From positions 1 through 55,134 of the forward strand of contig JBEEHI010000138.1 of the NCBI GenBank assembly GCA_041167305.1: a stretch of DNA of 55,134 nt. Reading direction: 5' to 3'. This document shows, piece by piece, positions 6,119 to 26,175 of this stretch (the first letter of the stretch is position 1; the number at the start of each line of letters is the position of its first letter). This DNA is from Verrucomicrobiota bacterium (GTDB lineage: Bacteria; Verrucomicrobiota; Verrucomicrobiia; Chthoniobacterales; UBA10450). The translations under genes were made by a program, and so were the position numbers. A model generated the notes under the pieces. That model had not been told where the DNA came from. It searched no databases and was given only the letters and a program-made list of their open reading frames with translations.

Positions 6119-6139
6119 CCCGGAGAGCCGGCCGCACCC

Positions 6140-7246: not shown

Positions 7247-7494
7247 ATGCCCGTGCCGCCGATCCATAACCGGCGGTGCCGGTGAATCATGCCTAATTAT
7301 CGTTTTAGAGATCGCAAAGGGCGCTCGAACTATGTTACCAAGGAGCTCAGCGATGACCATGGCCGCCCCACCCCTGAACGAACGTTTTCCGGCGAAACGA
7401 GACCGCCAGCCCTCGGATAGTGCCGCCTGGACCAGGGTCGTGTCGACGGAGGAGGCGCGAGCTAGCTTAAGCAAACACCCACACCCCAGCACCC

Positions 7495-8637: not shown

Positions 8638-9737
8638 AAATGAAATTCCATTGGCGACTCCTGCAAGGCGGGGAAACCGCGAACATGACGCGCGCAGCCG
8701 GCTGGAATCGGCGCGAGACCGGCATGCCGGATCTGGAGCGGCAGGTGGAATTTTGCCGGCGCGCCGAGGAATGCGGAATGACCGGGCTGCTCACCGATAT
8801 CGGCGCGGCGAAACCGGATCCGATCCTGCTCGCCGCTGCGCTTGGACTGGCCACGGAGAAGATCGAATTGATCGTCGCCTATCGTTCCGGGCTGATTCCG
8901 CCGACGACTTTTGTCCAGCAACTGAACACACTCTCCGCGCTCATCCAGGGCCGGTTCAGCTTGAATATCGTCGCCGGCCATTCGCCCCTCGAGCAACGCT
9001 ACTACGGCGATTTTCTTAGCCACGATGAACGTTATCCGCGGACGGAAGAGTTTCTCGCCATCTGCCACGCTTTTTGGCGCAACAACGACCCCGTCAATTT
9101 TCAGGGCAAGTATTATCAGATCGAGAACGGGCGGTTGAATACCGTGTTCGTTTCAAAATCGCGCACGAGTCCTGAGATTTTCATCGGGGGCGGTTCGGAG
9201 GCGGCACGCACCCTGGCGATTTCGCAAGGCTCGTGCTGGATGCGCCTCGCGGACACGCCGGCGAACCTGGAACCGGACGCGAAGACGGTGCTGGCGGCGG
9301 GCAAGGAAGTGGGCGTGCGCGTCTGCGTGATTTGTCGCCCCACGCGCGCGGCCGCGGTGCGAGCGGCTTACGAGCTGGTCGCCGGTCTTGATCCCGCCTT
9401 GCGCGACGCGGAGCACGAACGCGACTTCATGCGCAAGAGTGACTCAGTTTCAATCCGCCAAGTTTACGAGATGGCGGAAGGCGAATGGCCGGCTTCCTGG
9501 CTTTGGACGGGCGCGGTCCGGACCCACGGCGGCGCGGCGATCGCCGTGGTCGGCAACCCGGAGGAGGTCGCCTCGGCATTCATCGAATACAAGCGCGCAG
9601 GTGTTACGCAATTTATCCTCGCCGGTTGGCCGAAGCTCGATGAGATGATCATTTTCGGCCGCGACGTTCTGCCCTTGATCCGCCAAGAAGAGCGCGCCCT
9701 CGATGAAGTGCGCGGCGCCAGCAGCCACGATGACTAG
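8634..9737 (+). CDS. LLM-class flavin-dependent monooxygenase (SsuD-like), paralog
   Basis: ATGA overlap at 8634. 367 aa. Colinear with 7495..8637 (IVAYRSGLIPPTTFVQQLNTLSALIQGRFSLNIVAGHSPLEQRYYGDFLSHDERY). Confidence 0.8.
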   Translation: MKMKFHWRLLQGGETANMTRAAGWNRRETGMPDLERQVEFCRRAEECGMTGLLTDIGAAKPDPILLAAALGLATEKIELIVAYRSGLIPPTTFVQQLNTLSALIQGRFSLNIVAGHSPLEQRYYGDFLSHDERYPRTEEFLAICHAFWRNNDPVNFQGKYYQIENGRLNTVFVSKSRTSPEIFIGGGSEAARTLAISQGSCWMRLADTPANLEPDAKTVLAAGKEVGVRVCVICRPTRAAAVRAAYELVAGLDPALRDAEHERDFMRKSDSVSIRQVYEMAEGEWPASWLWTGAVRTHGGAAIAVVGNPEEVASAFIEYKRAGVTQFILAGWPKLDEMIIFGRDVLPLIRQEERALDEVRGASSHDD

Positions 9738-10500
9738 CGAAATCTCACGCGCGCGCTTTGAGCGGGACGGCATCGTTTTTCCAATCCCGGCTCTATCGCC
9801 GGAGAAGACCGCTGCTTACCGGACCTGCTTTGCAGAGCTCGAACAGAGTGCCGGCAGCCCGCTTTATCGGCTCCAAAATCCAACAGCACACTTCGCCTGG
9901 GCTTATCGCCTGGCGACGGAGCCGGCGGTGCTCGACGCCGTGGAGGAAGTGCTCGGACCAGACTTACTCATCGCGGGATCTCTCGTGCTCTGCAAATATC
10001 CCCGTGACCCGGCCTTCGTCGCCTGGCATCAAGACAACTATTATTCGAACCTGCATCTGACGCCCTCACTCTCGGCCTGGATCGCCTTGCTGGACAGCAC
10101 AACCGAGAACGGCTGTATGCGCGTGATTCCGGGCTCGCATCAAAACGGTGTTCTGCCGCACGACGAAATGGGGAATGCCGAAAATCTTCTCAATCAAGGA
10201 CAGGAGATTCGAGTGGAGGTGAATGAGGCCGACGCGTTGGAGGTGATCTTGCGCGCGGGCGAGATGTCGCTGCACCATACCGCCATCATTCACGGTTCGC
10301 GCCCGAATCGGTCGGACACGAAGCGGCTCGGATTTATCGTACGTTTCGTAACGAGTGCATACGATCTGGCGTCCCAGCAGACGCCATTTTTCCTCGCGCG
10401 AGGCAGTGCGGCCAACGGCAATCTCCACCTGGCGGCGGCGCCGCCTGAGCGTCCGCTGGCGGAAGCTTGGAACGAATTTGAGCAGCGGCAATCGAGCTAA
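9730..10500 (+). CDS. phytanoyl-CoA dioxygenase (PhyH) family Fe(II)/2-oxoglutarate oxygenase
   Basis: ATG 9730 overlaps the upstream gene by 8 nt. FERDGIVF, WHQDNYY (HxD) and a distal HHTAIIHGSRPN. Confidence 0.75.
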   Translation: MTSEISRARFERDGIVFPIPALSPEKTAAYRTCFAELEQSAGSPLYRLQNPTAHFAWAYRLATEPAVLDAVEEVLGPDLLIAGSLVLCKYPRDPAFVAWHQDNYYSNLHLTPSLSAWIALLDSTTENGCMRVIPGSHQNGVLPHDEMGNAENLLNQGQEIRVEVNEADALEVILRAGEMSLHHTAIIHGSRPNRSDTKRLGFIVRFVTSAYDLASQQTPFFLARGSAANGNLHLAAAPPERPLAEAWNEFEQRQSS

Positions 10501-10503
10501 GCC

Positions 10504-11544: not shown

Positions 11545-11549
11545 AGATC

Positions 11550-12854
11550 ATGGCTCGAGGTGCGCACCGATTCCGTGAGATGTTTCAGCACCGTGTCTGT
11601 ATCAATCTCGATCGCAGGCCGGAGCGGTGGCAGCGCATGCAGGCGCGCTTCGCAAAAGTCGACTTGGGATCGGTGGAACGGTTCCCCGCCGTGGACGGAG
11701 CAAATTTAGAGGTGCCCGCCGAGTGGCCCGAATCGGCCGGGGCGTATGGATGTCTGCAAAGCCACCTAGCCGTGGTGCGCCAGGCACGAGCGCAAGGGCG
11801 CGAAAATGTTCTGATCGTCGAAGACGACGTGCTTTTCGCGGAAGGCTTTCATGAGGAATTCGAAAAGCGAGTGCGCGGGCTGCCGGCGGATTGGGACATG
11901 CTCTTCTTTGGTTGTCTGCATCACGATCCGCCTGCGCCGGTCGCCCCGGGGATCGGCCGGCTGCGCGCTTCGTTTTCCACTTTGATGTATGCGGTGCGAC
12001 GAACGGTTTACGACGCCTTCATCTGCCTGAACGAACGGGAAGAGTACGCCGTCGACCGAAGTAATTGGGAACTTCAGGAGCGGTTCAATTGTTACTGTTT
12101 CCTGCCGCACCTGGCCTGGGTGGATGACAGTTACTCCGACGCGCAAGGAGTGCTCTCCAACCATTGGTATATCCGCGACTCGATGGTGTTGCGCGGCGAG
12201 GAGATGAAATCGATGGAGAAGCGCACGGCAATAGTCATCCCCTACCGCGAGAACGGGAACCGCGAACGCGGTTTGAAAAACCTGCGTTTTTTGGTCCGGC
12301 ATTACGGCGCACTCTTTTCAGTGCTTATCGTGGAACAGAACGAGGAGCCTCGCTTGAACGCGAACGCGGCGCCGGTGGGGTGCGAATACATTCATCTGCC
12401 CGAGGCGCGGCAGGAGAACTATTATGCGGCAGGCTTGGAAAAATTCGGGCAAGCCAAAGACTTCATCATCATCAATGATGGAAACGTCGTGTGTTCGCGC
12501 ATGGAGATGCGGGCCAGCCTCTGCAAATGTGTCGAGCACGACGCGGTGGGATCGTTCGCCACTTTCATAGACCTGGACGACGCGGACAGCGATCGGTTGC
12601 TCAACGGCAGGGAGTATCACACGGAGCGCTATTCGGCCCGTGTGCGGCGGGGCCGGTTCCGCGAATATTTTACGGCCACGATGAAAGGACTGCGCGACCT
12701 CTGCTCCTCCGGCACACTCGCGGGCGGCGATGGGGATGCCGCGCCCAGCGCAGATTTGCGCATCTTCGATTCGCCGGGATCGGCGCTCTGCCTTTCTTCG
12801 GGCCAATCCGGGCACCAGAAATTTTGTCAAGAAAATAGTACGAATTGTGATTGA
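11550..12854 (+). CDS. two-domain glycosyltransferase (N-terminal GT25-like, C-terminal beta-1,4-galactosyltransferase/GT7-GT2-like)
   Basis: 434 aa. N-terminal INLDRRPERW...GAYGCLQSHLAVV...VLIVEDDVLF. C-terminal TAIVIPYRENGNRERGLKNLRFLVRHY...LIVEQNEE. Confidence 0.7.
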   Translation: MARGAHRFREMFQHRVCINLDRRPERWQRMQARFAKVDLGSVERFPAVDGANLEVPAEWPESAGAYGCLQSHLAVVRQARAQGRENVLIVEDDVLFAEGFHEEFEKRVRGLPADWDMLFFGCLHHDPPAPVAPGIGRLRASFSTLMYAVRRTVYDAFICLNEREEYAVDRSNWELQERFNCYCFLPHLAWVDDSYSDAQGVLSNHWYIRDSMVLRGEEMKSMEKRTAIVIPYRENGNRERGLKNLRFLVRHYGALFSVLIVEQNEEPRLNANAAPVGCEYIHLPEARQENYYAAGLEKFGQAKDFIIINDGNVVCSRMEMRASLCKCVEHDAVGSFATFIDLDDADSDRLLNGREYHTERYSARVRRGRFREYFTATMKGLRDLCSSGTLAGGDGDAAPSADLRIFDSPGSALCLSSGQSGHQKFCQENSTNCD

Positions 12855-12981
12855 CGCCCAAGGCGCGCTTCCGGCAAACTGTAGGCAATTGGCCCCTAAT
12901 TGACCCCCAGGAAGTGTTGGTGTCGCCCATTCTCGGGTGTCGGTTGGAGGTAAGAAAACCTCGATCACGAAAGGAACACCG

Positions 12982-13287
12982 ATGAGCAAGGCGAAATCAA
13001 AGTTGGGCGCAAAGGGTCCGAAAACCCCGGGACCCCTTGGGGGTGGCGGACCGAAAGGAACGAAGGGACCTGGAGGCAACAAGGGAGGCAAGGACGGCAA
13101 AGGAAAGGGCAAGGGAAAGAAGGGAGGAGGCCCGTGGTCCGGCGGCGGTCCGGTCGTAGTGGTGCTCGACGAGTACACTGCAAAGAACTTGTTCCTCGCG
13201 CTGGCACAAGCGTTGGGAGCGCCCATTAACAAGAAGAAGGGGAAGAAGGGCAAAAAAGGGAAGAAGGGCAAAAAAGGCGGGAAATAA
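12982..13287 (+). CDS. Lys/Gly-rich polycationic small protein with a short hydrophobic core
   Basis: ATG 12982 is preceded by AAAGGA. The longest ORF starts at GTG 12937. Sequence MSKAKSKLGAKGPKTPGPLGGGGPKGTKGPGGNKGGKDGKGKGKGKKGGGPWSGGGPVVVVLDEYTAKNLFLALAQALGAPINKKKGKKGKKGKKGKKGGK. Same strand as its neighbours. Confidence 0.55.
   Translation: MSKAKSKLGAKGPKTPGPLGGGGPKGTKGPGGNKGGKDGKGKGKGKKGGGPWSGGGPVVVVLDEYTAKNLFLALAQALGAPINKKKGKKGKKGKKGKKGGK
13240..13275 (+). repeat. perfect 18-nt tandem duplication (gggaagaagggcaaaaaa x2) encoding GKKGKK GKKGKK
   Basis: Read directly: 13240-13257 is identical to 13258-13275. In frame within the K/G-rich ORF. Confidence 0.95.
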
Positions 13288-13568
13288 GCCTTGAGGCGAG
13301 GTGACGTGTCAACGGCGCCGAACGTCCTGAGAGACCCGAGGACGCCCAAACCCTAAACATCAACCCATGATCAAGTAACCACTCTTGTGTGCGCGCCCTG
13401 GAAATCTTTTGGGTCCGACTGGTATTGCCGTCGGAATCAAGGGCGCGCCGCATCAGTGGGAGTCGGAATCCATCCGGCGTTCGAGCCTCCGGTGGACATA
13501 AGATGGTACCTGAAGAGGAATCACAAACTCGGCTGCGCGAGCAGCTGTTCGAACCAGAGGAAACTGCA

Positions 13569-16500
13569 ATGAGATACACCCACCTGTTCCGCCTTGGCAG
13601 CGCCGTAGCACTCCTGGCATTCGCCTTGGGCCCAGCAGCACCGGCAAAGGAAGCTCCCGTCGTGTGCAACCGCACCATCAAGGTGCAGATAGTCGCCTTC
13701 GATCAACCATGGATGTGGAATCGTCTCGGCGCAGCGCAGCCCGGCGGCATGATCTACGCGCTGGCCCGCGACGTTGTGAAGAACATGGATGGCTCGCCCT
13801 TGCCGGACGACTTGAAAGCTCTAAAGCCGGAGGATTCTAAATCGCTTTGCGGTGGCGTGCGCCTCCGCGATGGCAAACGCGCGCGTCCGCTCGTCCTGCG
13901 CGCGAACAAAGGGGATTGCCTCGAGATCACTTTCTTGAATCTGCTCCAACCGGATCCCGTGGCGGCGGACAACCGCCTGCCGGCTGCGGCTACTCGCTTT
14001 GCCGGGATCCATGCGGCGGGGATGGAGTTGGGAGACAAGTCGAGCGACTCGTCCTGGGTCGGCAACAATCCGAGCAGCCTCGCCGAAAACGGACAGACCA
14101 AGATCTATAAGTGGTACGCCGCAGAGGAAGGAACCTTCCTCATATATAGCGCCGCCGATATGGAAAGTGGTTATCAAGCCAAGGAAGGCTTGTTCGGCGC
14201 GATCCACGTCGAGCCCGAAGGGGCGGAATGGTATCGCAGCCAGATCACTCATGACGATCTGGAGCAGGCGACATTAACCGAGGCCGACTTGAAGGAGTAT
14301 TCCCAGAAATTGGTCGGAGCTTCCGTCGCAGCCGATCCACCGCCAAAGACGGCGGAAAAGATCGCGCCGGCGGCCGAGAAACCGCCGCCGGGAGCCGAAA
14401 ACTTTACCAAGAAAACGCTGGAAAGCTACGTCGCCGACAAGCGCTCCAGTGTCACCGTCTTCGTGGATGAAAAAGGCGCGGGCGGAAAACGTATCCATAC
14501 GGCCACCGGCCAGCCGCGGATCTATTATAACGCCCTGTATCCGGCGAAGGAGCAAAAGCGTGGCGTGCCTGTGCTGCAAATGCTGCAAGTAAATCCAGTT
14601 GGCGCGGCCCTGTACGACCAGCCTTTGCAGAAACAAAACCCAGCCGATTACATTGAGGAGGTGAGCGATTTGGACGCGGGCATCATTCCGGCCAAACTGC
14701 GGGCCCTCTTCAAAGATAAGAAACAGGAGCTCTCGCCCGGCGCGAAGGTGGTTGAGCAATACCGTTATAGCTGGCTGATCACCGACGAGGGCAAGGCCTT
14801 TTACGTGACGGCGAACCTTCCATCGACAGCGCAGGTAGCGCAGGCCCGTCAGCTCCAGATTTTCGCGGCCGAGCTGGAGCTGATTTATAGCGATCTCACC
14901 GCTGTGATTACCGGACCGAACGCCGGCAGGTTCTCGTACGCCAACACGAGCCCGACCTTTCGGGAGAACCCGGCTTCGCCCGATCGCCGCCAGCCGTACC
15001 GCGAGTACACGATAATTTATCATCAAGCCTTTTTCGCCACGCAAAGCTTTGCGTCTTTTGCGAACGCGAATCTGGTCAACGTCATTCAGCCTGGCGCCGA
15101 TAACTTCGCCATCAATTACGGTTCGGCCGCCATCGGCCCTGAGATAGTGGCGAATCGGCTGGGGGTGGGACCGATGGGAAATCGGGACGCGGTGGACTTA
15201 AAGTTTGAAGAATTCTTCCTCAGCGCCTGGGCGGTCGGAGATCCCGCCATGGTGGTGGATCATCCCGCGAATGCTTCCAACGCGATGGTCGGTTCTCCTT
15301 CTCTGGATGAGCACAGCGCGCTGCGGACCCAGGTTCCGCCAGGGTCCGTCGCCCAGCAACTCGCCGCCGCTCACGCGCCGCCGCTGCCGCGCCCGGCACA
15401 AGTGAGTCCGCCGGGAAGCGACGACTTCGCCCCGCTGCCGGCGCCGCCCGTCAAAGCGACGAAGGCGTTTTTTCCGGCTGATCCGTCGAACGTCTACCAC
15501 AGCTACATGAACGACCACGTGAAGTTCCGCATCCTCCATGCGGGACCCGGCCCGTCGCACGTCCATCATTTGCACGCGCACCAGTGGTTGCGCTCACCCG
15601 ATAGCGACGACGGCCATTATCTGGATAGCCAGCTCATCGTGCCGGGTTCGGCCTTCACTTTGGAGATCACCTACAACGGCAGTGGCAACCGCAATAAAAC
15701 GGTGGGGGATGCGATTTTCCACTGCCACTTTTATCCCCATTTTGCCCAGGGCATGTGGGCCATGTGGCGCGTTCACGACGTGTTCGAGGGAGGAACGCTG
15801 CTGGACAAAAACGGAGTACCGCTCAGTGGGGTCAACCGGGCGTTGCCGGATGGTGAGATCGAGCACGGCACCCCGATCCCGGCGATCGTGCCGCTGCCCA
15901 CTTTGGGCATGGCTCCGATGCCGGCGGAAGTGGAGCTCACGGACCTTTCGCCTTGGTCGCCGGGAGGGCAAGGCCGGCGAGTCCTCGTCCATAAGGAAAA
16001 GGACGGGACGTATCGGAGCCCGGGCTATCCCTTCTTCATCCCAGGAGTCGCCGGGCACCGCCCGCCGCACCCGCCGCTCGATTTTGCCTGGCTGGAGGAG
16101 CCTGATACCGGCAAGGCGATCCTGAGCCCGAGCCCATCGCCAGACCCAAGCCCTGGCAAGGATAGGAAGATTTATCTCGATGGCGGCCTGCCGCGCCACC
16201 TGGTCCTGGATGGTAAGGTGGTCAAGGAGTTCCATACGCGCTGGGACTTCAGCAAAGACACCGCGCTGCGCGATAAGGATGGAAATATTATTCCCGGCGG
16301 CGAGTTGTCGGCTTTCGAGCTCCCGGAGGAGGGCACGCCGGTAGAGCTTGCGGCCATGAAGGAACACGCCACGCGGACCCGGCCGACGACCCAGCCCAAT
16401 GGCGATCCCGGAAATTTCATCCTCAACGGTTTGCCTCCAACGCCGGGAGCGCCCTACGCCGATCCAGCGGTGACGGATGAAGGGAATGCCAACCCGCATC

Positions 16501-19500
16501 GCCGACGGTATCAAGCCGCCGTGTTTCAAATCGACACAGTTCTAAATAAGAAGGGCTGGCACTATCCCCAACAGCGAATGATTTCGCTCTGGCAGGATGT
16601 GAAACCGACGGTCGACACCACGCGCCCGCCGCAGCCCTTCTTCTTCCGCACCAATACTTCGGATAGCATCCAATACTGGCATACCAATCTGCTGCCGAGT
16701 TACTATGAGCTGGACGATTTCCAGGTCCGCACGCCAACGGACATCGTGGGGCAGCATATCCATCTGGTGAAGTTCGACGTGACTTCCTCCGACGGCGCGG
16801 AGAATGGGTTTAACTATGAGGACGGCACTTACGCGCCCGACGAGGTCCAGGAGCGGATCGCTTCCATCAATGCCAAGGGCGGTTTGTTTGCCTTCGACCC
16901 GGCGACGGGATTTGTGAATAAGGCGGCGCAACAAACACTTACCCCTAAGAAGGTCAAAGATTACTATCCGCCTCCCGACAGCAAATATGCCGGGCTGGAC
17001 GGCAATGGTGTTCCGACATGGACAAATCCGAATCCCAACGTGCTCTCCGTGTTCGGTCCGCCGACGGGCCGTTCCGATGCATGGGATGGCGCCCAGACGA
17101 CGATCCAACTCTGGGAGGTAGACGCACTCCTCAATAATGAAGGAGTCGACCGGACGCTGCGGACCGTCTTCACGCACGACCACTTCGGGCCGTCGACCCA
17201 CCAGCAGGCGGGTCTCTACGCGGGTATGATCGTCGAGCCGGAAAACTCGGAATGGTACCTGCCCGATGGTCTGCGGATGAACACGCGGCTCGATGGCGGT
17301 CCCACCAGTTGGCACGGATATATCGTGACCGACGATCCCAAAGATAGTTATCGCGAGTTTGTCCTCGAGTTCCAGGACATGCAGCTGGCCTACACCAAAG
17401 AGAGCCGGAAGAAGCCCTCGGCCAAAATGTTCGATCCCGATCTGGATCCCAAGGATTGCGGGGAGAACGGTAAGGAATGCTCCTCGCCGGCGTTCGACAT
17501 TGCGCAGGCCCATAGCATCGCCGGGATAAAGATCACCTACCTGCCCCTGTACGTCGCCGATCTGGACCAGGGCAAGCTTCCGGTGCCCCCACCGCAGGCA
17601 ATCGGCGCTGCGCCGTTCACCGAATTGTTCCCGCAGTTTGGAATTCCGCTTTCGAAAAATGCGACGGTGGCGGTCGTGACCAAAGGGGAGAAATGGACGA
17701 TCACGGAAGCGGCGAACGAAATCAACGGCAAGGCGAGCGACGGCAAGGCGACGAAATATATCGTGCGCGCCACGTTTGAAGCAAACCCCACGACGGGCGG
17801 CAAAACAATCAAGCAGCTATTGGTTTACACGCCGGATATTTCCCCGGGCTGGGCCGACGCGAAGTTTGCCCTCAATGCGCCGGGCGACAATGAAAACGCC
17901 GGGAATGGACCGCCGTTCGCGCAAATCGTGAGCCAGAACCAGAACGGCACCTATTCGCTGAATTATCGCAACGAACCGGTGCCATTCCGAGTCGCCTGCC
18001 CGCCGAATATGACCGAAAACGCCGACCTGGCGCTGGCCTTTAGCTCGATCAAGCGGAGCGATGCAGACCTAAACATCCAGCCCGACGGGAAGCCTGGCTT
18101 TCCCAAAACGCCGCTGGTGCCAAATGCAAAGGGGACGGATCCCTATACGCCACTGCTCGAAGCTTACGTGAACGATCGTGTGCAAATTCGCACGCTCGTA
18201 GGCGCGCACACGCAAGCGCACGCTTTCCAAATTCATGGAGTGAAATGGTTGTATGAGCCCGATAATCCCAACTCGGGTTGGCGCAACGCGCAACTCATGG
18301 GGCTCTCGGAACACTTCGAAATGATTTTCGACTTGCCCGGCACCACCTTCAAGCACGGGGGGCCAAACCCCGTTCCTGACCCGCAGATGCCGCCGTTCGC
18401 CGATTATTTTTATTCGCCCAGCTCCGACATCGTCGGATTGAACAATGGCCTTTGGGGAATCATGCGCTCTTATGGCGCCCCCGTTCCGGGTGTGCAGCCA
18501 TTGCCGAACAATCCGAAGCCCGCCTCCAATGTCGAAAACGACCTGTTCAAAGATGGATATGACAAGGCTCCGAAAGCCCTCCGACAGGACTTCAAAGTCA
18601 CGGCGGTGACGGCGGATGTGCTCCCGAATGGCAATCTGATTTACAACGGCCGCGATCCGGGCAGCCAGCTCTCCACCAATGAAGCGGTGCTCTTCGTTCG
18701 CACCGACGATCTGGACCCCACAACAAAGAAACTAAAATCTAGCGTGCCAGTCGAGCCTTTGATTCTTCGGGCCGCGGCGGGCCAATGGATCAAGGTGACT
18801 TTGCACAATGCGTTCGATGTGAAAAGCAAAGCGTTGACGGATATCGAGACGCTTCCTTATGGCACCCCCTTTACCGGTGGACCGGACGCTCCGGAACCCG
18901 GTCTGAAGACTTCCGCAAAGGTCGGCTTGCACCCGCAATTGGTCGGCTTCGATCCAATCAACGCAAACGGTGTCCTCGTCGGGTTCAATCCGAAAGACCG
19001 GCTGGTGGACCCAGGCCAGACGCGCGATTTCTATTGGTATGCCGGGGAGCTAAGGCGAGACGAAAACGGAAAGATTCAGGCGCAGCCGATCGAGTTTGGC
19101 GGCACGAACCTTACTTCGGCCGATCAACTGCTTCAGCCCCAGTTCGGCATGGTGGGCGCGCTGATCATTGAGCCGGAAGGCGCCACCTGGACCGAGGATG
19201 TCTCCAGCCGCGCCTCTGCCACCGTCAAGTTCCCGGGCGGCGCCGATTTCCGGGAATTCGTGGTGATCGATCAGAACATGGTGGCCAACTCGGCGGCGGA
19301 CAATAGTGTTCTGGCCAGTGTCGCGGGAAGCGCAATCGGGGCAATAAATTACCGCTCGGAGCCGTTTGGGATTCGCGGCGTGCCGAGTAACGCCCAAAAC
19401 TTTCCACAGCCTGCGCCGCAGGGGTACGCGCAAGCCTTCTCCAATAGCATGTTCAATCCGCCGGCCGATCCGCAAACCCCGGTGTTCGTGGCCGCAGCTG

Positions 19501-20105
19501 GAACGCCGACGCGTTTCCGAATGCTCGTTCCCAGCACGGCCACGAGTAATGCCATCAACGCGCCACCCGTCTTCATCGTTCACGGCCATAACTGGCTGGA
19601 AGAGCCCTACGTTTTCGATTCCTCGAAAATCGGCTCTAATCCGCTTTCCGAAACACAGGGCGCCGTGCAAGGCGGCGTAGGCCAGAAGTTCGATCTGGTC
19701 TTCCCCAGCGCCGGTGGTCGCAATAAAGTTGCGGGCGATTATCTTTACACCACGTACCAAACCGCCGGGCGGGCCGGCACCTGGGGCCTCTTCCGGGTAA
19801 CGCCGTACCAAGTGGCGATCGAGAAAGCGACTCTCGTGAAAGACACGGTCGAGGTGAGCGGAACAGTGCAGGCGGCGACGACGGTAGGCGGTGGCGTCAT
19901 GCCAAAGAATTTGCTGTTAACGATCGCCAGCGAGAAGAACGCCGGGGCCGAGGCGGGAACCCCCAGAACCATCAAGGTCAATGATGGAAAATGGTCGTAC
20001 AAGGGCACGACAAAGCTTCTCGCGCCCGCGCGCGTCCAAGTCACCGCGTTTGGAGACGACAATTTGGTTGCCGCCACCAGTTCAGCGATACTCACCGCCC
20101 GCTAG
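13569..20105 (+). CDS. giant secreted multicopper oxidase-like protein (2,178 aa; MnxG-like large MCO)
   Basis: ATG 13569 with GAGGAA 7 nt upstream. Signal peptide MRYTHLFRLGSAVALLAFALGPAAPA. Copper motifs HVHHLHAH (15558-15581), HCHFYPHFAQGM (15720-15755), HIH (16755-16763), THDHFGPSTHQQAGLYAGMIVEP (HDH at 17175-17183), HAFQIHG (18207-18236) and HGH (19581-19589). Confidence 0.85.
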   Translation: MRYTHLFRLGSAVALLAFALGPAAPAKEAPVVCNRTIKVQIVAFDQPWMWNRLGAAQPGGMIYALARDVVKNMDGSPLPDDLKALKPEDSKSLCGGVRLRDGKRARPLVLRANKGDCLEITFLNLLQPDPVAADNRLPAAATRFAGIHAAGMELGDKSSDSSWVGNNPSSLAENGQTKIYKWYAAEEGTFLIYSAADMESGYQAKEGLFGAIHVEPEGAEWYRSQITHDDLEQATLTEADLKEYSQKLVGASVAADPPPKTAEKIAPAAEKPPPGAENFTKKTLESYVADKRSSVTVFVDEKGAGGKRIHTATGQPRIYYNALYPAKEQKRGVPVLQMLQVNPVGAALYDQPLQKQNPADYIEEVSDLDAGIIPAKLRALFKDKKQELSPGAKVVEQYRYSWLITDEGKAFYVTANLPSTAQVAQARQLQIFAAELELIYSDLTAVITGPNAGRFSYANTSPTFRENPASPDRRQPYREYTIIYHQAFFATQSFASFANANLVNVIQPGADNFAINYGSAAIGPEIVANRLGVGPMGNRDAVDLKFEEFFLSAWAVGDPAMVVDHPANASNAMVGSPSLDEHSALRTQVPPGSVAQQLAAAHAPPLPRPAQVSPPGSDDFAPLPAPPVKATKAFFPADPSNVYHSYMNDHVKFRILHAGPGPSHVHHLHAHQWLRSPDSDDGHYLDSQLIVPGSAFTLEITYNGSGNRNKTVGDAIFHCHFYPHFAQGMWAMWRVHDVFEGGTLLDKNGVPLSGVNRALPDGEIEHGTPIPAIVPLPTLGMAPMPAEVELTDLSPWSPGGQGRRVLVHKEKDGTYRSPGYPFFIPGVAGHRPPHPPLDFAWLEEPDTGKAILSPSPSPDPSPGKDRKIYLDGGLPRHLVLDGKVVKEFHTRWDFSKDTALRDKDGNIIPGGELSAFELPEEGTPVELAAMKEHATRTRPTTQPNGDPGNFILNGLPPTPGAPYADPAVTDEGNANPHRRRYQAAVFQIDTVLNKKGWHYPQQRMISLWQDVKPTVDTTRPPQPFFFRTNTSDSIQYWHTNLLPSYYELDDFQVRTPTDIVGQHIHLVKFDVTSSDGAENGFNYEDGTYAPDEVQERIASINAKGGLFAFDPATGFVNKAAQQTLTPKKVKDYYPPPDSKYAGLDGNGVPTWTNPNPNVLSVFGPPTGRSDAWDGAQTTIQLWEVDALLNNEGVDRTLRTVFTHDHFGPSTHQQAGLYAGMIVEPENSEWYLPDGLRMNTRLDGGPTSWHGYIVTDDPKDSYREFVLEFQDMQLAYTKESRKKPSAKMFDPDLDPKDCGENGKECSSPAFDIAQAHSIAGIKITYLPLYVADLDQGKLPVPPPQAIGAAPFTELFPQFGIPLSKNATVAVVTKGEKWTITEAANEINGKASDGKATKYIVRATFEANPTTGGKTIKQLLVYTPDISPGWADAKFALNAPGDNENAGNGPPFAQIVSQNQNGTYSLNYRNEPVPFRVACPPNMTENADLALAFSSIKRSDADLNIQPDGKPGFPKTPLVPNAKGTDPYTPLLEAYVNDRVQIRTLVGAHTQAHAFQIHGVKWLYEPDNPNSGWRNAQLMGLSEHFEMIFDLPGTTFKHGGPNPVPDPQMPPFADYFYSPSSDIVGLNNGLWGIMRSYGAPVPGVQPLPNNPKPASNVENDLFKDGYDKAPKALRQDFKVTAVTADVLPNGNLIYNGRDPGSQLSTNEAVLFVRTDDLDPTTKKLKSSVPVEPLILRAAAGQWIKVTLHNAFDVKSKALTDIETLPYGTPFTGGPDAPEPGLKTSAKVGLHPQLVGFDPINANGVLVGFNPKDRLVDPGQTRDFYWYAGELRRDENGKIQAQPIEFGGTNLTSADQLLQPQFGMVGALIIEPEGATWTEDVSSRASATVKFPGGADFREFVVIDQNMVANSAADNSVLASVAGSAIGAINYRSEPFGIRGVPSNAQNFPQPAPQGYAQAFSNSMFNPPADPQTPVFVAAAGTPTRFRMLVPSTATSNAINAPPVFIVHGHNWLEEPYVFDSSKIGSNPLSETQGAVQGGVGQKFDLVFPSAGGRNKVAGDYLYTTYQTAGRAGTWGLFRVTPYQVAIEKATLVKDTVEVSGTVQAATTVGGGVMPKNLLLTIASEKNAGAEAGTPRTIKVNDGKWSYKGTTKLLAPARVQVTAFGDDNLVAATSSAILTAR

Positions 20106-20107
20106 CG

Positions 20108-20968
20108 ATGTGGGAAATTGGCATCCTGCGCGGCGCGTCGCCGCTGGAGTGGACGCCCGCCGCCGAGGGGAGGAACCCCATCCTCACCGCCAGCGACATC
20201 ACGGACGTGAAGGCGGAGTTCGTGGCGGACCCGTTTATGATTCGCGTGGGAGAGCTTTGGTATCTTTTTTTCGAGGTGCTGCCGGAGAAGAGTGATCGCG
20301 GTGAGATCGGGCTGGCCATCAGCCGCGACACCGCGAACTGGGAATATCAGCGGATCGTTCTGCGCGAGCCATTCCATCTCTCCTATCCGCACGTCTTTGC
20401 CTGGAACGGAGATTACTACATGATTCCCGAGACGCTCGACGCGCAGGAGGTGCGCCTTTATCGCAGCGGAAATTTTCCCTTCGATTGGGAATTCAAGCAT
20501 ACGCTCATTTCCGGTCAGTATGCCGACCCGACGATTTTCCGGCACGATGATCGCTGGTGGCTGTTCGCCTGCGACACACCGCACGCGCACCGGTCGCTGC
20601 GGCTGTTTAGTGCGCCGGACTTAACCGGGCCATGGGAAGAACATCCGTCCAGCCCCATCATCGCGGATAAACGTTCCCAGGCTCGGCCGGCCGGGCGCAT
20701 CCTGTCTCACGCGGGCCGAACGGTGCGCTTCGCCCAGGATTGCGAGGAGCAATATGGCAATCGCGTGTGGGCTTTCGAAATCACTCAACTCACCCCCGAC
20801 GCTTATCGCGAAATCCCGGCTTCGTCGCGGCCGGTGCTTGATGCGGGAAACCGGGGCGGATGGTGGACGCAGCGGATGCACCACATCGACGCTCACCATA
20901 CCGCCGGAGAAGGCTGGGTGGCATGCGTGGATGGGTGGGGTGGAAGGCCGAAGGAGAACGGCCAATGA
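20108..20968 (+). CDS. GH43-like five-bladed beta-propeller family protein (family seen in polysaccharide loci)
   Basis: ATG 20108 lies 2 nt after the MCO stop. 286 aa. FVADPFMIRVGELWYLFFEV, YPHVFAWNGDYYMIPE, ADPTIFRHDDRWWLF. Confidence 0.5.
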   Translation: MWEIGILRGASPLEWTPAAEGRNPILTASDITDVKAEFVADPFMIRVGELWYLFFEVLPEKSDRGEIGLAISRDTANWEYQRIVLREPFHLSYPHVFAWNGDYYMIPETLDAQEVRLYRSGNFPFDWEFKHTLISGQYADPTIFRHDDRWWLFACDTPHAHRSLRLFSAPDLTGPWEEHPSSPIIADKRSQARPAGRILSHAGRTVRFAQDCEEQYGNRVWAFEITQLTPDAYREIPASSRPVLDAGNRGGWWTQRMHHIDAHHTAGEGWVACVDGWGGRPKENGQ

Positions 20969-21726
20969 ACGAGCCTATTCAGAGCCTTTGGGTCGGAGGG
21001 GAGCTTTCGCCGATGGAACAGCTTTCGATCGCCTCTTTTCTCGCGCACGGGCACCAGTACCATCTTTACAGCTATGGCGAGGTCGGCAATGTTCCCGAAG
21101 GCGCGATCCTGAAAAGCGCAGAAGCGATTCTGCCGCGAGCCGCTGTCTTTCAATACAGGAAGCATCCGAGTTACGCCGCCTTCTCAAACTTTTTTCGCTA
21201 CAACCTTTTGTTGCAAAAAGGTGGATGGTGGTCCGACACCGACGTGGTTTGCCTGAAACCGTTCGCGTTCGACGAGCCCTACGTCTTCGCCTCGGAGCAA
21301 ATCCATGGCGGCGAGGTGGCCGCGAGCGCCGTTATCAAAGTACCCGCCGGGAGTGAGATTATGGCATTCAACTGGCATCTCTGCCTGGCCTCTCCCGATC
21401 CGGCCGCGGCGGCTTGGGGCCAGTTCGGCCCGAAATTGATGGCGCGCGCCATCAGCAAATTTGGTCTCAGCCCATTCCTGCTGCCCGCGAACGTCTTCTG
21501 CCCGTTCTCGTACGACGAATGGGAAACAGTGCTCGCCCCGCGCGAGATCACCTTCGGGGAAGCGACGCACGCGGTGCACTTGTGGAACGAAATGTGGCGC
21601 CGCAGCGGCCGCGACAAGCGAGCGGCGCACGACCCGGATTGCCTCTACGAACGCCTGAAACGCACCTACTTCATCGAACCTCAAATCGTCCCTAACATCC
21701 CATGCTATGAAAATACCTGCCCTTGA
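20965..21726 (+). CDS. glycosyltransferase family 32-like (DXD sugar-binding region)
   Basis: ATGA overlap at 20965. FSNFFRYNLLLQKGGWWSDTDVVCLKPF. Confidence 0.7.
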   Translation: MNEPIQSLWVGGELSPMEQLSIASFLAHGHQYHLYSYGEVGNVPEGAILKSAEAILPRAAVFQYRKHPSYAAFSNFFRYNLLLQKGGWWSDTDVVCLKPFAFDEPYVFASEQIHGGEVAASAVIKVPAGSEIMAFNWHLCLASPDPAAAAWGQFGPKLMARAISKFGLSPFLLPANVFCPFSYDEWETVLAPREITFGEATHAVHLWNEMWRRSGRDKRAAHDPDCLYERLKRTYFIEPQIVPNIPCYENTCP

Positions 21727-23008: not shown

Positions 23009-24019
23009 CTACGAAATGCCGACGGCAAACTGCGCTGGTCCAAGCTTCAACTTCACCCAGCGGCGGGCGTGCCGCTTTGGGACCGAAGACCAAAGCGCGA
23101 TTTCTTTCGTCAGCTCGGTCACATAATCGCGCGCCATTCTGAGGTAGTGATAATGTTCCAGGGCGAGGACGCGGCAAGCCAGCGGTGAGATGCGGCCGAT
23201 ATTTTCAACGGCACAAACGTAGTCACCGAAATTCGAACAGACAAAGCCCGCTTCAGGCGGCACGAGTTCCGGACACGCACCGCGATCGCTGCAAATGACC
23301 GGCGTCCCGGACATCAACGCTTCGGCGACCACAAGGCCAAAGGTCTCGTTGGCGAGAGTGGGAAAAAGTAAGGCGCGCGCGCCGGCAAATAGCTCCGCCT
23401 TTCTCTTGCCTGAAACGTGCCCGACATAAGTGATGCCTTCCTGCGCAAACATCTGCAAGATGGCTGGCGCCGGCGGTTGATCGGGGGAACCGCCGGCCAC
23501 CACGAGCTTGAGCCCGCAAGCACGTACCAGCGACCTCGCCACCTCGAAACCCTTAAGCTGCAAAGTAGCCATATTGGCCACGACAAAGAGAAAATAATCG
23601 CGCTTGGTTTCCGAATAAATTAGTTCGCTTGGGTCGATGCCATTGGTGACATAGCGGCGCCGATAGAACGATGACGCGTGCGCCTTGGAGACAAAAATCC
23701 AATTTCGCCGTATGTGCCGCCAGATTCGATCCCGAGGTTTACGTGGAGAATGGTAAGGACGCACCCAGGGAACGCCGCGCGTCTCCGGCGAAGTCCACGG
23801 ACTGTAGTCCTGGAGCACCATGGCATCGACGTTGTAGCGCCGCTTTCGGACGAGCTCGACACCCTCGGGCAGCCGGGTGGCGGCGCCGCCTTCGAGTTTA
23901 TAAATAACGGTGTGTCCCAGCTCGGCCAAGCCTTTCGCCAGGCAGTCTGCGATTCGGTCGGATGCCATGCCGCCGTCGCTTGCTGGATATCGGTGGCCCG
24001 AAGCGATGAGAATTTTCAT
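23009..24019 (-). CDS. glycosyltransferase family 4
   Basis: 336 aa. ETFGLVVAEALMSGTPVICSDRGACPELVPPEAGFVC. ATGA overlap with the upstream 719-aa gene. Confidence 0.85.
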   Translation of the reverse strand: MKILIASGHRYPASDGGMASDRIADCLAKGLAELGHTVIYKLEGGAATRLPEGVELVRKRRYNVDAMVLQDYSPWTSPETRGVPWVRPYHSPRKPRDRIWRHIRRNWIFVSKAHASSFYRRRYVTNGIDPSELIYSETKRDYFLFVVANMATLQLKGFEVARSLVRACGLKLVVAGGSPDQPPAPAILQMFAQEGITYVGHVSGKRKAELFAGARALLFPTLANETFGLVVAEALMSGTPVICSDRGACPELVPPEAGFVCSNFGDYVCAVENIGRISPLACRVLALEHYHYLRMARDYVTELTKEIALWSSVPKRHARRWVKLKLGPAQFAVGIS

Positions 24020-26175
24020 GCGGCCACTGCGCGCTCAGATGTGGGTGTCCCAGGCAAATACAGAAACGCGTAGCGCTTCACCACATCGCCATGTTTCTCC
24101 AGCGCGGTCAGATAATTCTCAATTACCTCCTCATCGTATTTCCGGCGCGAAAGATAGGTTTGCGTGCGCGCTTTCCATTCCGCCAGTTGAGCGCCGTCGT
24201 CGCAGGCGCCCAGATAGTCGGCCACGATCGCGTTCCAATCCCGTAGGTGGCGAAGATACGATTTCGAAAAAAGCCGCCGAACTTTCGGATCGCGCTCCAG
24301 CGCCTGGCGAGTGCGCCAGCAGGCGATCTTCATCGCTTCGTTCAGATAATCATAGCCGCGGGCGCGCTCCGCCTCCGTCACGTGATAAATCTGCGCGAGG
24401 AAAAACAGGTCGCTCCGGGCGATCTGTTTCGGGCGTCCCGGGTTGCCGCGGATGAAGCACTCGTCCAGCACCGCTGTTCTCAAGGCGCCCTGGGGCCAGA
24501 ACACCTCTTCGTCTTCCTCCGGAACAAACAGATTATCATGGTCCATGGAAAGGAGCCGCGAAGTCCATTCGCCTCGGACGAACGTGCTCTTGAGACCCAC
24601 ATTACGGCCTACGAATGATTCTCCGTAGGTAAAGCCCCCGAGGGCGAGAACCGTGCCCCAGAGCAGGCCAAGATCGGAGACCGCCCCCGCATGAAGAAGA
24701 TCCGCGCGCCGTCGGTTTTCCGGTACAGCGAAGGCCGCTGCGAGGTATTGAGCGTGATCTGCGTAGGCGACCGCGGGCGCTTGATAAATGCCCAGCACTT
24801 CATCGAGCAGCGCATCGGCGAAACGCCGCGCCTCGTCGCGGCTGTAACATTCCCGCTTCAGTCCGCGCTGAAAATAAATCTCTGCGCCTGCGTGGGAGAA
24901 ATATTTCGTGAGCGTATCGAGGCGGTAGGAAGTGGTTTGCGCGAGCAGGCCCTGGCACGGCAGAACATGGTAAAGGAAGCGGCCGGTGAGTCCCGCCTCA
25001 CCCGGCAGATGAGCGAAGTCGCGGCCGAACTGCTGGTCGAACGCGGAAATGCATTGCTTCATCTGCTGCCGCATCTCTGGATGGCCGGCGCCAAAAACTT
25101 CCGGGTCGGTAAAGTAGTCGAGCAGGTGAACGTCACGGCCCTGACACGGCACCGTTCTATAACTCGCCAGCGCGAGCAATTTGGAGATGGGGGCTTCACC
25201 GCCGTGCGCCGCGCGATAGACTTCCGAAAAGATTGCGGCGTGGTTCGATTCCCAGCGCAGGCCCGCGGTGGAAGCGCCGCCCTGTAAACGATGCGACGGC
25301 GGGACGGCTTCGCCTTTGTGGGCAAACGAAGCCGAGAGCGGGAAAGAACCGCGAAGACCCGTGCGCTTGATCTCGATTTCCAGCGAGCTGCCCGGTGGTT
25401 TCACCACGCAAACGACCGTGCCAATTGGATTCTCGAGCAGGCGATTGATCGCGGAGGAGGTCCGTTCGCAGGCCCAATAAACCCTCGCGCGCTGGCTCAG
25501 GCGCCGCACGATTTCCCGTTCATAGGCTGGCAGGTGCGACAGGTACCGCTCCGCTTCCGCCTCGCCGAGATCTTCCAGCGGGGAGGTGAGACCCGAGGAA
25601 ACTTGCAACTGCTTCCACACCCGCTCCACCACTTCCGCCGGCGTGAAAAGGTGGCGGGCGAGGGCGACTTTGCAGGGATCACGAGAGATGACGATGAAGT
25701 CGTCGAGCGCTTGGGTCGTCGTGTCAAAACCGCACAAACCGCGATGGGTTCGCTCAAGCCGGCGAAGATGGTGCCGAAATTGGACGCTGAAGGCGCGGAG
25801 TTCGGTGGAGGTGTAACCCTGCCGCAGCACGTCGGCCTGCACGCCGCGCGCGTCGGATTCCAACAATCCCAGGCTGGCGAAAAGCGAGGTGAATTCCTCA
25901 CTGGCATCGATCGGGAGCCGGAGGCATTGATTGGCCAGCATCAGGGCAGCAAACAAACGGAGGTTCCATGAAGCGCCGCCGCCGCCACGCCCGAGCCGCA
26001 CCAGCTCGAGGGCAAAACGCCGTTCGTAATGATTCAGCGCAAGGAATGCGCTGACCACATCCGCAGCGAGCGGTTCGCCGGGGAAGCGGGCGGCCACGAC
26101 CTGCGCCAAATTCGCGGGAAGCGGCGGGCCGGCCTCGCGGCGGCTGAAAATCTCGCCGGGGGGATGTGCGGGCAT
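24016..26175 (-). CDS. large hypothetical protein (719 aa), no family recognised
   Basis: Long ORF with ordinary, non-low-complexity composition, translationally coupled to the GT4. It contains only weak kinase-like strings (VVCVVKPPGSSLEIEIKRTG, SMDHDNLF). Confidence 0.6.
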   Translation of the reverse strand: MPAHPPGEIFSRREAGPPLPANLAQVVAARFPGEPLAADVVSAFLALNHYERRFALELVRLGRGGGGASWNLRLFAALMLANQCLRLPIDASEEFTSLFASLGLLESDARGVQADVLRQGYTSTELRAFSVQFRHHLRRLERTHRGLCGFDTTTQALDDFIVISRDPCKVALARHLFTPAEVVERVWKQLQVSSGLTSPLEDLGEAEAERYLSHLPAYEREIVRRLSQRARVYWACERTSSAINRLLENPIGTVVCVVKPPGSSLEIEIKRTGLRGSFPLSASFAHKGEAVPPSHRLQGGASTAGLRWESNHAAIFSEVYRAAHGGEAPISKLLALASYRTVPCQGRDVHLLDYFTDPEVFGAGHPEMRQQMKQCISAFDQQFGRDFAHLPGEAGLTGRFLYHVLPCQGLLAQTTSYRLDTLTKYFSHAGAEIYFQRGLKRECYSRDEARRFADALLDEVLGIYQAPAVAYADHAQYLAAAFAVPENRRRADLLHAGAVSDLGLLWGTVLALGGFTYGESFVGRNVGLKSTFVRGEWTSRLLSMDHDNLFVPEEDEEVFWPQGALRTAVLDECFIRGNPGRPKQIARSDLFFLAQIYHVTEAERARGYDYLNEAMKIACWRTRQALERDPKVRRLFSKSYLRHLRDWNAIVADYLGACDDGAQLAEWKARTQTYLSRRKYDEEVIENYLTALEKHGDVVKRYAFLYLPGTPTSERAVAA

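Follow-up and report, generated by a model that had tools for sequence, protein, structure and literature searches.

In a 55,134-nucleotide (nt) stretch of DNA from a Verrucomicrobiota bacterium (Chthoniobacterales, UBA10450; assembly GCA_041167305.1, contig JBEEHI010000138.1, positions 1 to 55,134 of the forward strand), hereafter the window, we studied a small gene whose product, the mini-protein, is a Lys/Gly-rich polycation of 101 amino acids (aa) encoded just upstream of a giant multicopper oxidase (MCO) similar to MnxG. Comparison with homologous loci indicates that the mini-gene is real, that its product represents a family not described before, and that it is present together with a block of cytoplasmic enzymes that includes a PhyH-type dioxygenase and a glycosyltransferase of family 25 (GT25). 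We tentatively read the mini-protein as a cytoplasmic, self-associating polycation whose Lys-Gly repeats may be modified by these co-conserved enzymes. The coordinates of the features discussed are collected in Table 1.

Coding status and start of the mini-gene

The Lys/Gly open reading frame (ORF) can be read from a GTG at 12937 (12937..13287, 116 aa) or from an ATG at 12982 (12982..13287, 101 aa), in both cases up to the stop codon at 13285-13287. The shorter product, MSKAKSKLGAKGPKTPGPLGGGGPKGTKGPGGNKGGKDGKGKGKGKKGGGPWSGGGPVVVVLDEYTAKNLFLALAQALGAPINKKKGKKGKKGKKGKKGGK, contains 27 Lys, 30 Gly and 8 Pro but 3 acidic residues, has neither His nor Cys, and its initiator is its sole Met; a hydropathy scan of the mini-protein found no hydrophobic N-terminal segment and hence no signal peptide. 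Coordinates, Lys/Gly-rich composition and lack of a signal peptide had all been proposed in an earlier inspection of the DNA letters (the sequence-only reading), and all three stand.

One explanation that had to be weighed is that the frame is no gene at all, being either a side effect of GC skew and purine richness in the DNA or the complement of a P/F-rich antisense ORF of 343 aa (12318..13349) that would be the real product. The antisense frame is indeed open in the window, and it shares its wobble position with the + frame; since third-position bias alone cannot separate the two, stop codons were counted in all frames of 18 homologous genes. The + frame alone was open in 18/18, whereas the antisense frame is interrupted in most homologues, including locus L007, the closest relative in this test (1 stop), which effectively refutes the antisense ORF as the real product. 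Moreover, at the codons of the conserved core described below, synonymous differences outnumber amino-acid differences in 4/5 comparisons with the window (18 against 10 for L004). The coding indels between the window and L007, whose oxidase is 87% identical, measure 12, 6 and 6 nt and are all in frame, as multiples of 3, those of 12 and 6 nt falling in the N-terminal region of the gene; the start, the stop, the Shine-Dalgarno site and the amphipathic-helix pattern are retained across phyla. The comparison thus indicates that the mini-ORF is a real protein-coding gene, and the opposite view can for practical purposes be set aside; the sequence-only reading had left room for a frame not conserved in relatives or for an antisense product, and in the relatives it is the + frame that is conserved while the antisense frame is not. 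The mini-gene illustrates well how a real small gene can escape annotation libraries; its low-complexity sequence and the open antisense frame could easily have got it dismissed.

The ATG at 12982 is the likely start and the 101-aa form the likely product, because the N-termini of the family align there and a Shine-Dalgarno-like site is found in the conserved leader. Every homologue begins with M-S-K-[TA]-K or M-G-x-x-K at the position of this ATG, and the site, AAAGGA at 12970-12975, ends 6 nt before it; the acidobacterial clade has GAAGGAGGA at the same position, so that the Shine-Dalgarno site is kept in both clades. The GTG at 12937 lies within the conserved leader and is not favored as a start.

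The leader (12920-12981) is near-identical throughout the clade of homologues that begin with MSKTKS (GCCCATCTCGGGTGTCGGGTTAGAGGTAAAAATCTCGACCACGAAAGGAACACC) and contains a TAAAAT-like element ~30 nt before the ATG, which suggests a promoter of its own or a translational control element. Rfam, promoter and terminator scans around the mini-gene returned nothing meaningful.

A family with a conserved core and Lys/Gly-rich flanks

A first homology search recovered 28 proteins sharing the architecture of the mini-protein. A profile search of 1.84 billion representatives gave 94 clusters at 50% identity, among them a few low-complexity false positives, and a profile built from distant members reached at least 265 proteins, all of them labeled 'hypothetical' and none with a Pfam domain. 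Some candidates, such as P0080 and P0084, were dropped as low-complexity matches of the profile to GDKGDK sequence. The mini-protein had no match in sequence searches of Pfam, NCBIfam and the Protein Data Bank (PDB), and searches of the literature on MnxG in Verrucomicrobia, on MnxG with lysine-rich proteins and on the mnxG locus of P. putida (PputGB1_2447) gave no account of such a family, which from these searches appears undescribed and unannotated until now.

Members are defined by a short M-[SGA]-x-x-K N-terminus, a variable Lys/Gly spacer, a core and a poly-Lys/Gly tail. In the two family alignments (A1 and A3) the N-termini read MSKTKSKSG or MGxxK and the core follows the consensus V-x-V-x-L-x(4)-A-x-x-L-[FL]-x-[AL]-L-x-x-A-L-G-x-P; the spacer before it, composed of Lys and Gly and at times Pro or Thr, is very variable in length among homologues and often terminates in GGY. 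The window ORF matches the corresponding hidden Markov models (HMMs) with E = 1e-23 for A1, in which the window is included, and with E = 2.7e-13 for A3, from which it is excluded. The three parts seen by the sequence-only reading, namely a K/G/P-rich half, a core and a (GKK)n tail, are all present in the window protein, except that the core measures 25 aa and not ~30.

The core begins with a short beta-strand-like V-x-V-x-L, in which the hydrophobic residues alternate, and continues with an amphipathic Ala/Leu helix and then G-x-P. The conserved helix positions A67, L70, F71, L74, A77 and L78 share one Ala/Leu face, and the overall pattern reads as the signature of a packing interface and not of a membrane span. 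AlphaFold2 (AF2), run with the family alignment, returned one confident helix at residues 64-77 (predicted local distance difference test, pLDDT, ~90) and low confidence for the remainder, with pLDDT < 50 for residues 7-43, which is consistent with the mini-protein being disordered outside the helix. At least six independent variants (P0034, P0036, P0050, P0082, P0086 and P0099) carry the core in tandem. The core is probably a docking or self-association element, and it is the existence of these tandem variants that leads us to read it as pairing with itself.

The core also occurs fused to TIR_2 domains (P0035 and P0048), to transthyretin-like domains, and, in P0110, to an otherwise uncharacterized protein of 703 aa. 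Five family variants bear a peptidoglycan-binding domain and one (P0030) has a Sec signal peptide.

The tails consist of a Lys run followed by a K/G-rich stretch of 23-88 aa in which Gly mostly recurs every 3 residues, as G-X-K triplets with Lys preceding Gly. Some of them are collagen-like, such as (GPK)10 in L019 and (GTK)13(GPK)11 in L037, and P0012 has a precomputed match to the collagen repeat PF01391. The window protein, whose longest regular run is (GKK)4-5, does not match PF01391 at E <= 1; by this measure it falls outside the collagen-like proteins, whereas some of its homologues (P0012, L019, L037) fall within. When the family profile was searched against the PDB the only near-matches were collagen-like peptides, (PKG)10 among them, with non-significant E-values of 0.05-0.5.

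Tandem Repeats Finder recovered the perfect 18-nt duplication at 13240-13275 that had been noticed in the letters (period 18, 2.1 copies, 100% match at 13240-13277). The suspicion of a length-variable tail was likewise borne out, not only by the range of tail lengths in the family but by close relatives: L030, whose neighboring genes are 86-95% identical to those of the window, has 5 GKK units where the window has 4, as well as more GK units upstream of the core, and L007 has diverged tail units and one extra GKK unit. Because the repeat number shifts between such close relatives, the duplication is a recent, lineage-specific slippage event in a length-variable tract.

Synteny with an MnxG-like oxidase

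The 2178-aa product of the gene that follows the mini-gene is barely detected by Pfam (Cu-oxidase_2, E = 0.29). Against the PDB it matches MnxG (9bxa_A) with E = 3e-70 over many segments, its HxHxH and HCHxxxHxxxGM copper motifs align with those of 9bxa, and it scores 1032 bits against NCBIfam NF041487 ('manganese-oxidizing multicopper oxidase MnxG'), for which the equivalog cut-off is 3100. By sequence it is a clear MnxG homologue, in line with the giant MCO called from the letters, although it stays below the equivalog score and its Mn(II) oxidation is putative. MnxG-type oxidases are among the leading candidates for bacterial Mn(II) oxidation, and the partners they require are poorly understood.

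A total of 281 nt separate the stop codon of the mini-gene from the oxidase ATG at 13569, close to the 280 nt estimated before. This spacer holds a GC-rich stem-loop at ~13391-13452 (GCGCGCCCU...AGGGCGCGC), only partly conserved in L007, which could set the ratio of mini-gene to oxidase expression; in the spacer (13288..13568) neither an Rfam family nor, on the + strand, a site resembling a terminator was found.

The sequence-only reading had proposed looking for similar K/G-rich ORFs beside large MCO genes in relatives, and such neighbors were found: in 32/33 loci with adequate flanks an MnxG-like gene lies within ~6 kb of the mini-gene, in four gene orders. It is directly downstream in 24 Verrucomicrobia-type loci; in L001, L002, L004, L005 and L006 the mini-gene is directly upstream of a ~2200-aa gene. 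A genome scan seeded with the oxidase gave 17 loci, and at all eight Verrucomicrobiota-type loci, with oxidases at least 59% identical, the mini-gene was found just upstream (HMM E-values of 1e-18 to 1e-30). Some of the related loci come from metagenome-assembled genomes (MAGs) of Chthoniobacterales. A metagenome scan seeded with the mini-gene added 16 loci, with the MnxG-like gene downstream in 11/11 that extend far enough and the GT25 gene upstream in 15/15 with enough sequence.

Distant members of the family are probably acidobacterial, P0199 and P0217 being from Pyrinomonadaceae. At acidobacterial-type loci the mini-gene is directly downstream of a gene for a ~1900-aa MnxG-like protein, 51% identical to the window oxidase over the best-aligned 929-aa segment, and is always followed by a ~690-aa gene whose product is ~40% identical to that of window positions 24016-26175. 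The mini-gene and the 690-aa gene are also paired in L046, where the oxidase gene is ~5 kb off on the opposite strand. The lone exception is L003, with a mini-gene and no MnxG-like gene within 10 kb. Searches with both HMMs found no mini-gene in the 6-kb flanks of the MnxG-like genes of Sphingomonadales (~40% identical) and Thermoanaerobaculia (47%), nor in the shorter sequence present at the truncated Myxococcaceae and Sulfopaludibacter loci. As a whole, this gene order supports a functional tie between the mini-protein and the large MCO.

Three loci show peculiarities of their own. L003 keeps, at 10001-20393, the mini-gene, PhyH, GT25, SCO1, the beta-propeller protein and the cytochrome c-binding protein, followed downstream by short ORFs only; the absence of the oxidase could reflect gene loss or a frameshift-ridden long-read assembly. 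In L008 (5343-5903) the mini-gene is frameshifted within its GTK repeat tail, probably through a long-read assembly error, and the MAG is labeled Chloroflexia, yet its locus hardly differs from the one in the Chthoniobacterales MAG L019, a hint of mis-binning. In L001 an AAA ATPase gene, weakly TIR/SEFIR-like (Pfam scores below the curated cut-offs), and a possible TPR gene are inserted at 2876-5527; these interrupt an otherwise syntenic cluster and are absent from the window and L002.

The adjacency invites the view that the mini-protein, itself unmodified, serves the oxidase as accessory subunit or as polycationic scaffold, with the helix binding the oxidase and the Lys/Gly arms binding or nucleating the negatively charged Mn oxide or an anionic glycan matrix; we regard this as possible, if somewhat unlikely. 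At almost all loci the mini-gene directly adjoins the MnxG-like gene, in two orders, but the MnxG-like genes of Sphingomonadales and Thermoanaerobaculia manage without it, L003 retains it in the absence of a nearby oxidase gene, and among the oxidases compared no insertion or acidic patch correlates with the presence of the mini-protein. Polycations bind Mn oxides and polyanions, and the positive-inside rule makes a polycation of charge +24 a poor export substrate. The variants with a peptidoglycan-binding domain and the Sec signal peptide of P0030 are points in favor, although nearly all family members lack a signal peptide; since the signal of the oxidase is of Sec type and not Tat, the mini-protein could not leave the cytoplasm as part of a folded complex. 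A precedent exists in the MnxE and MnxF subunits of the Bacillus Mnx complex, where Mn-oxide nanoparticles form (PMC5622069). The co-variation of the mini-protein with cytoplasmic enzymes, presented next, also argues against an unmodified partner of the oxidase.

A co-varying module of cytoplasmic enzymes

Co-variation was assessed with a tblastn profile of all cluster genes of the window against all loci. An exported set comprises the MnxG-like oxidase, SCO1/SenC copper chaperones, a beta-propeller protein and a fusion of cytochrome c with a periplasmic binding protein; a cytoplasmic set comprises the mini-protein, PhyH, GT25, a ~700-aa protein and usually GT32 and other glycosyltransferases. 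The cytoplasmic set is present or absent as a block, whereas the exported set occurs also without the mini-gene. Within the profiled sets, PhyH and GT25 were found at every mini-containing locus with enough flank, and the mini-less MnxG-like loci of Sphingomonadales and Thermoanaerobaculia keep SCO1, the propeller and the cytochrome c-binding protein while PhyH, GT25 and the ~700-aa, kinase-like protein are absent. Acidobacterial loci carry in addition TauD, GT2 and methyltransferases.

The same division appears in the predicted compartments. On hydropathy, signal-like N-termini are restricted to the oxidase, SCO1, the propeller, the cytochrome c fusion and one small unknown protein, and neither signal nor transmembrane segments are seen in the glycosyltransferases, PhyH, the ~700-aa protein or the mini-protein. 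A polysaccharide locus would be expected to encode a flippase- or polymerase-like membrane protein, and none was found when the cluster genes were scanned for hydrophobic segments.

The GT25 gene is immediately upstream of the mini-gene, and its product has as best PDB matches mimivirus R655 and human procollagen galactosyltransferase 1 (COLGALT1), with E-values of 8e-4 to 0.05. R655 has been described as a putative galactosyltransferase of collagen hydroxylysine (PMC9546862), and the enzymes that attach galactose to collagen hydroxylysine, GLT25D1 among them, belong to GT25 (PMC3244457). The PhyH protein matches PDB entry 6zyk with E = 1e-40, a structure without a stated function, and the literature on 6ZYK and 6ZYL did not reveal the function of this closest structure.

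The ~700-aa protein, of 719 aa in the window, had no match in Pfam, NCBIfam or PDB sequences; its family has at least 161 homologues, and an AF2 model was built with 30 of them. In Foldseek YdiU/SelO came first (probability 0.99, E = 0.015), with dozens of protein kinases behind it, which suggests with modest confidence, at TM-scores of 0.24-0.35, a protein-kinase-like (SelO/YdiU-like) fold. K270, D545, H546 and D547 are among the invariant residues of the family, and K259 is nearly so. Its homologues adjoin the mini-gene in L024-L029 and L046-L049, the kinase-like gene directly following the mini-gene outside Verrucomicrobiota, and we consider this an undescribed enzyme family in its own right. 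Mini-protein, ~700-aa protein, PhyH, GT25 and GT32 thus define a conserved, unannotated partner module of MnxG that occurs in abundant but uncultured soil phyla.

The company of these enzymes raises the idea of a precursor akin to ribosomally synthesized and post-translationally modified peptides (RiPPs), in which the core would serve as leader-like recognition sequence and a cationic peptide, formed from the tailored Lys/Gly arms, would be released and secreted. Reminiscent of such systems are the shortness of the ORF, its conserved recognition-like element between flanks that vary, the neighboring dioxygenases and glycosyltransferases, and the methyltransferases of related loci; yet the conserved element is central and not N-terminal, repeat products of 60-150 aa are atypical for RiPPs, and the window cluster and related loci have no leader peptidase, no exporter of the peptidase-ATP-binding cassette (ABC) type and no RiPP recognition element (RRE) or PqqD-type protein, which makes this idea very improbable.

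The mini-protein could also be a cytoplasmic binder of polyanions such as nucleic acid, polyphosphate or the inner membrane leaflet, acting as regulator, chaperone or membrane-recruitment factor in the expression or export of the ~2200-aa oxidase precursor or of the enzyme module, a role we judge unlikely. It would suit the extreme positive charge, the predicted disorder and the lack of a signal peptide, and the core with its Lys tail, which would oligomerize and be driven by charge, behaves as a portable module in its fusions to TIR_2 and transthyretin-like domains and in P0110. A generic nucleic-acid binder is however not expected to hold cross-phylum synteny at 32/33 loci, Pfam and NCBIfam gave no match to a DNA- or RNA-binding family, and the strand lacks the basic or polar residues that occupy alternate positions in ribbon-helix-helix proteins that read DNA.

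A proposed role as modified polycation

As the module combines cytoplasmic modifying enzymes with one non-enzymatic, repeat-rich protein, we take the mini-protein to be their substrate or scaffold, which is our preferred reading, still a tentative one. The conserved core would dock or self-associate and so render the mini-protein multivalent, and the many equivalent Lys-Gly sites of the flanks would be acceptors for the co-conserved enzymes. The PhyH-type 2-oxoglutarate dioxygenase may hydroxylate Lys, and GT25 and further glycosyltransferases may O-glycosylate the hydroxylated Lys as in the modification of collagen hydroxylysine; the ~700-aa kinase-like protein may phosphorylate or nucleotidylate the mini-protein, with methyltransferases adding further, silaffin-like marks in some loci. 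In its modified form the polycation would act together with the exported oxidase and its partners, conceivably at the cell envelope.

The sequence-only reading had speculatively placed the protein in a matrix or scaffold, with silaffins as a model. A modified substrate or scaffold fits better, and a silaffin-like extracellular mineral template is weakened because the mini-protein has no signal peptide, carries a charge of +24 and groups with cytoplasmic enzymes by hydropathy, and because it tracks the PhyH/GT25/kinase-like module rather than MnxG itself. Once modified and exported, the mini-protein might still act in a mineral or matrix, given the variants with peptidoglycan-binding domains and the one with a signal peptide.

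Several points weigh against the substrate reading. The link between enzymes and substrate is drawn only from gene neighborhood, and at L048 and L049, which have short flanks only, PhyH and GT25 were not seen. The window GT25 resembles the collagen enzymes only as one member of a family resembles another (E 8e-4 to 0.05), and the likeness may simply follow from the choice of GT25 enzymes with a solved structure; in bacteria most GT25 enzymes are lipopolysaccharide galactosyltransferases. PhyH-family enzymes usually act on small molecules, and collagen lysyl hydroxylases belong to a different family of 2-oxoglutarate oxygenases. The kinase-like assignment comes with weak Foldseek E-values and TM-scores of 0.24-0.35. 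It is also conceivable that the enzymes of the module act on the oxidase precursor or on a small molecule. Furthermore, the adjacency of the oxidase, the five peptidoglycan-binding variants and the signal-peptide variant point outside the cytoplasm, and the substrate model leaves unexplained how the modified product is linked to the exported oxidase.

An extended form of the substrate reading, which we find decidedly doubtful, is that soil Verrucomicrobiota and Acidobacteriota encode a lysine-modification system, following the logic of collagen and silaffin, that supplies an organic template, anchor or cross-linked matrix for the product of an MnxG-type oxidase. Here the repeat-variable Lys-Gly polycation would oligomerize through its minimal strand-helix unit, forming in some lineages a cationic collagen-like triple helix, and its lysines would be hydroxylated, glycosylated and phosphorylated or nucleotidylated by PhyH, by GT25 and other glycosyltransferases, and by the SelO-like kinase-fold enzyme. 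If true, this would be a bacterial counterpart of the eukaryotic biomineralization matrix proteins. Were the mini-protein a lysine-modified scaffold, it would bring collagen- or silaffin-like lysine chemistry to bacteria, a candidate organic template for Mn-oxide formation, and a set of genes to co-express for the reconstitution of MnxG-type oxidases.

Other features of the window

Table 1. Position of the mini-gene, its parts and the neighboring genes in the window.
Feature	Position	Strand	Description
PhyH-family Fe(II)/2-oxoglutarate dioxygenase	9703..10500	+	PF05721, E = 3.5e-26
Two-domain glycosyltransferase	11550..12854	+	N-terminal GT25; PF01755, E = 3e-8
Conserved 5' leader of the mini-gene	12920..12981	+	Near-identical in L007, L010, L011 and L021
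Mini-protein coding sequence	12982..13287	+	101 aa, 9.8 kDa, pI 10.66, net charge +24
N-terminal region, residues 1-56	12982..13149	+	MSKAKSK start, then K/G/P-rich spacer; predicted disordered
Conserved core, residues 57-81	13150..13224	+	PVVVVLDEYTAKNLFLALAQALGAP; columns invariant or nearly so in alignments A1 and A3; AF2 helix
C-terminal polycationic tail, residues 82-101	13225..13284	+	INKKK(GKK)4GGK
Perfect 18-nt tandem duplication	13240..13275	+	GGGAAGAAGGGCAAAAAA x2; encodes GKKGKK twice
Intergenic spacer	13288..13568	+	Fold z-score -2.4 for the whole spacer
MnxG-like giant multicopper oxidase	13569..20105	+	2178 aa; Sec-type signal peptide
GT32-like glycosyltransferase (Gly_transf_sug / Gb3_synth)	20860..21726	+	Found at most mini/MnxG loci, divergent ones included
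~700-aa protein	24016..26175	-	719 aa; AF2 pLDDT 91; no Pfam domain

Upstream of the glycosyltransferases, positions 1860-9737 (+) encode a flavin mononucleotide (FMN) reductase, a dehydroquinase-shikimate dehydrogenase fusion, an acyl-CoA-dehydrogenase-like protein and two luciferase-like monooxygenases, a block that is syntenic in L001, L002, L003, L032 and L044. The block resembles a pathway for a small molecule, which may run from quinate/shikimate to an oxidized aromatic, and could supply a substrate of the oxidase. Two paralogous small proteins of ~125-140 aa without a Pfam match, at 4006-4389 and 4479-4832 (+), are conserved in verrucomicrobial clusters and have homologues of 30-35% identity in acidobacterial ones (L025, 15617-16036, and L027).

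Further downstream, a tandem double SCO1/SenC protein at 28249-29319 (+) adjoins the cytochrome c-periplasmic binding protein fusion at 29294-30892, and positions 33987-35723 (+) encode an ABC ATPase fused to a low-molecular-weight phosphotyrosine phosphatase domain. The gene at 36124-37164 (-) encodes a homologue of the prokaryotic pentameric ligand-gated ion channels (Neur_chan_LBD, Neur_chan_memb) and is unrelated to the mini-gene.

Comparison with known systems

The closest functional parallel is with MnxE and MnxF of Bacillus sp. PL-12, small, folded, copper-binding subunits of ~12 kDa in the active Mnx complex (PMC5622069). The mini-protein is likewise small, without similarity to characterized proteins, and encoded beside an MnxG-type oxidase. 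It is however a Lys/Gly polycation in place of a folded copper-binding subunit, and its lack of His, Cys and any Met besides the initiator argues against copper binding. The oxidase also differs, being here of the ~2000-aa MnxG type with a signal peptide, and the mini-protein co-varies with cytoplasmic modifying enzymes. Searches of the PDB with the mini-protein and the family profile returned no similarity to MnxE/F, whose chains were perhaps not in the set searched.

With the lysine modification of collagen (GLT25D1/COLGALT1, and L230, R655 and R699 of mimivirus) the system shares the combination of Gly-X-Lys repeats, a 2-oxoglutarate dioxygenase and a GT25 enzyme, and some homologues of the mini-protein bear true collagen-like tails. 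It differs in that consecutive triplets number only ~5 in the window protein, which Pfam does not recognize as collagen, in that the dioxygenase is of the PhyH and not the PLOD type, and in its cytoplasmic, bacterial setting, where hydroxylysine is hypothetical. Some family tails are literally (GPK)n and thus resemble the (PKG)10 peptide of PDB entry 2klw, a likeness that is compositional only (E 0.05-0.5); (PKG)10 is synthetic and its triple helix requires an anionic partner chain.

Silaffins, the peptides of diatoms that template biosilica, reportedly have, in the work of Kroger and colleagues from 1999 and 2002, lysines that are hydroxylated, methylated and phosphorylated, and the peptide is said to template mineral. 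The likeness here lies in a Lys-rich disordered polycation, in clusters that encode dioxygenases and a kinase-like protein, with methyltransferases in related loci, and in a putative mineral-forming oxidase alongside; silaffins, in turn, are secreted by eukaryotes by way of signal peptides and share no homology with the mini-protein, and in the present system both the modifications and Mn oxidation are putative. No Pfam or NCBIfam match connects the mini-protein to histone-like or nucleoid-associated Lys-rich proteins of the Hc1, HU-tail or AlgP type. Judged by sequence, the mini-protein belongs to none of the collagen-like, RiPP and silaffin families; in function it appears to resemble the small accessory proteins encoded beside mnxG, and in design the Lys-rich modified scaffolds.

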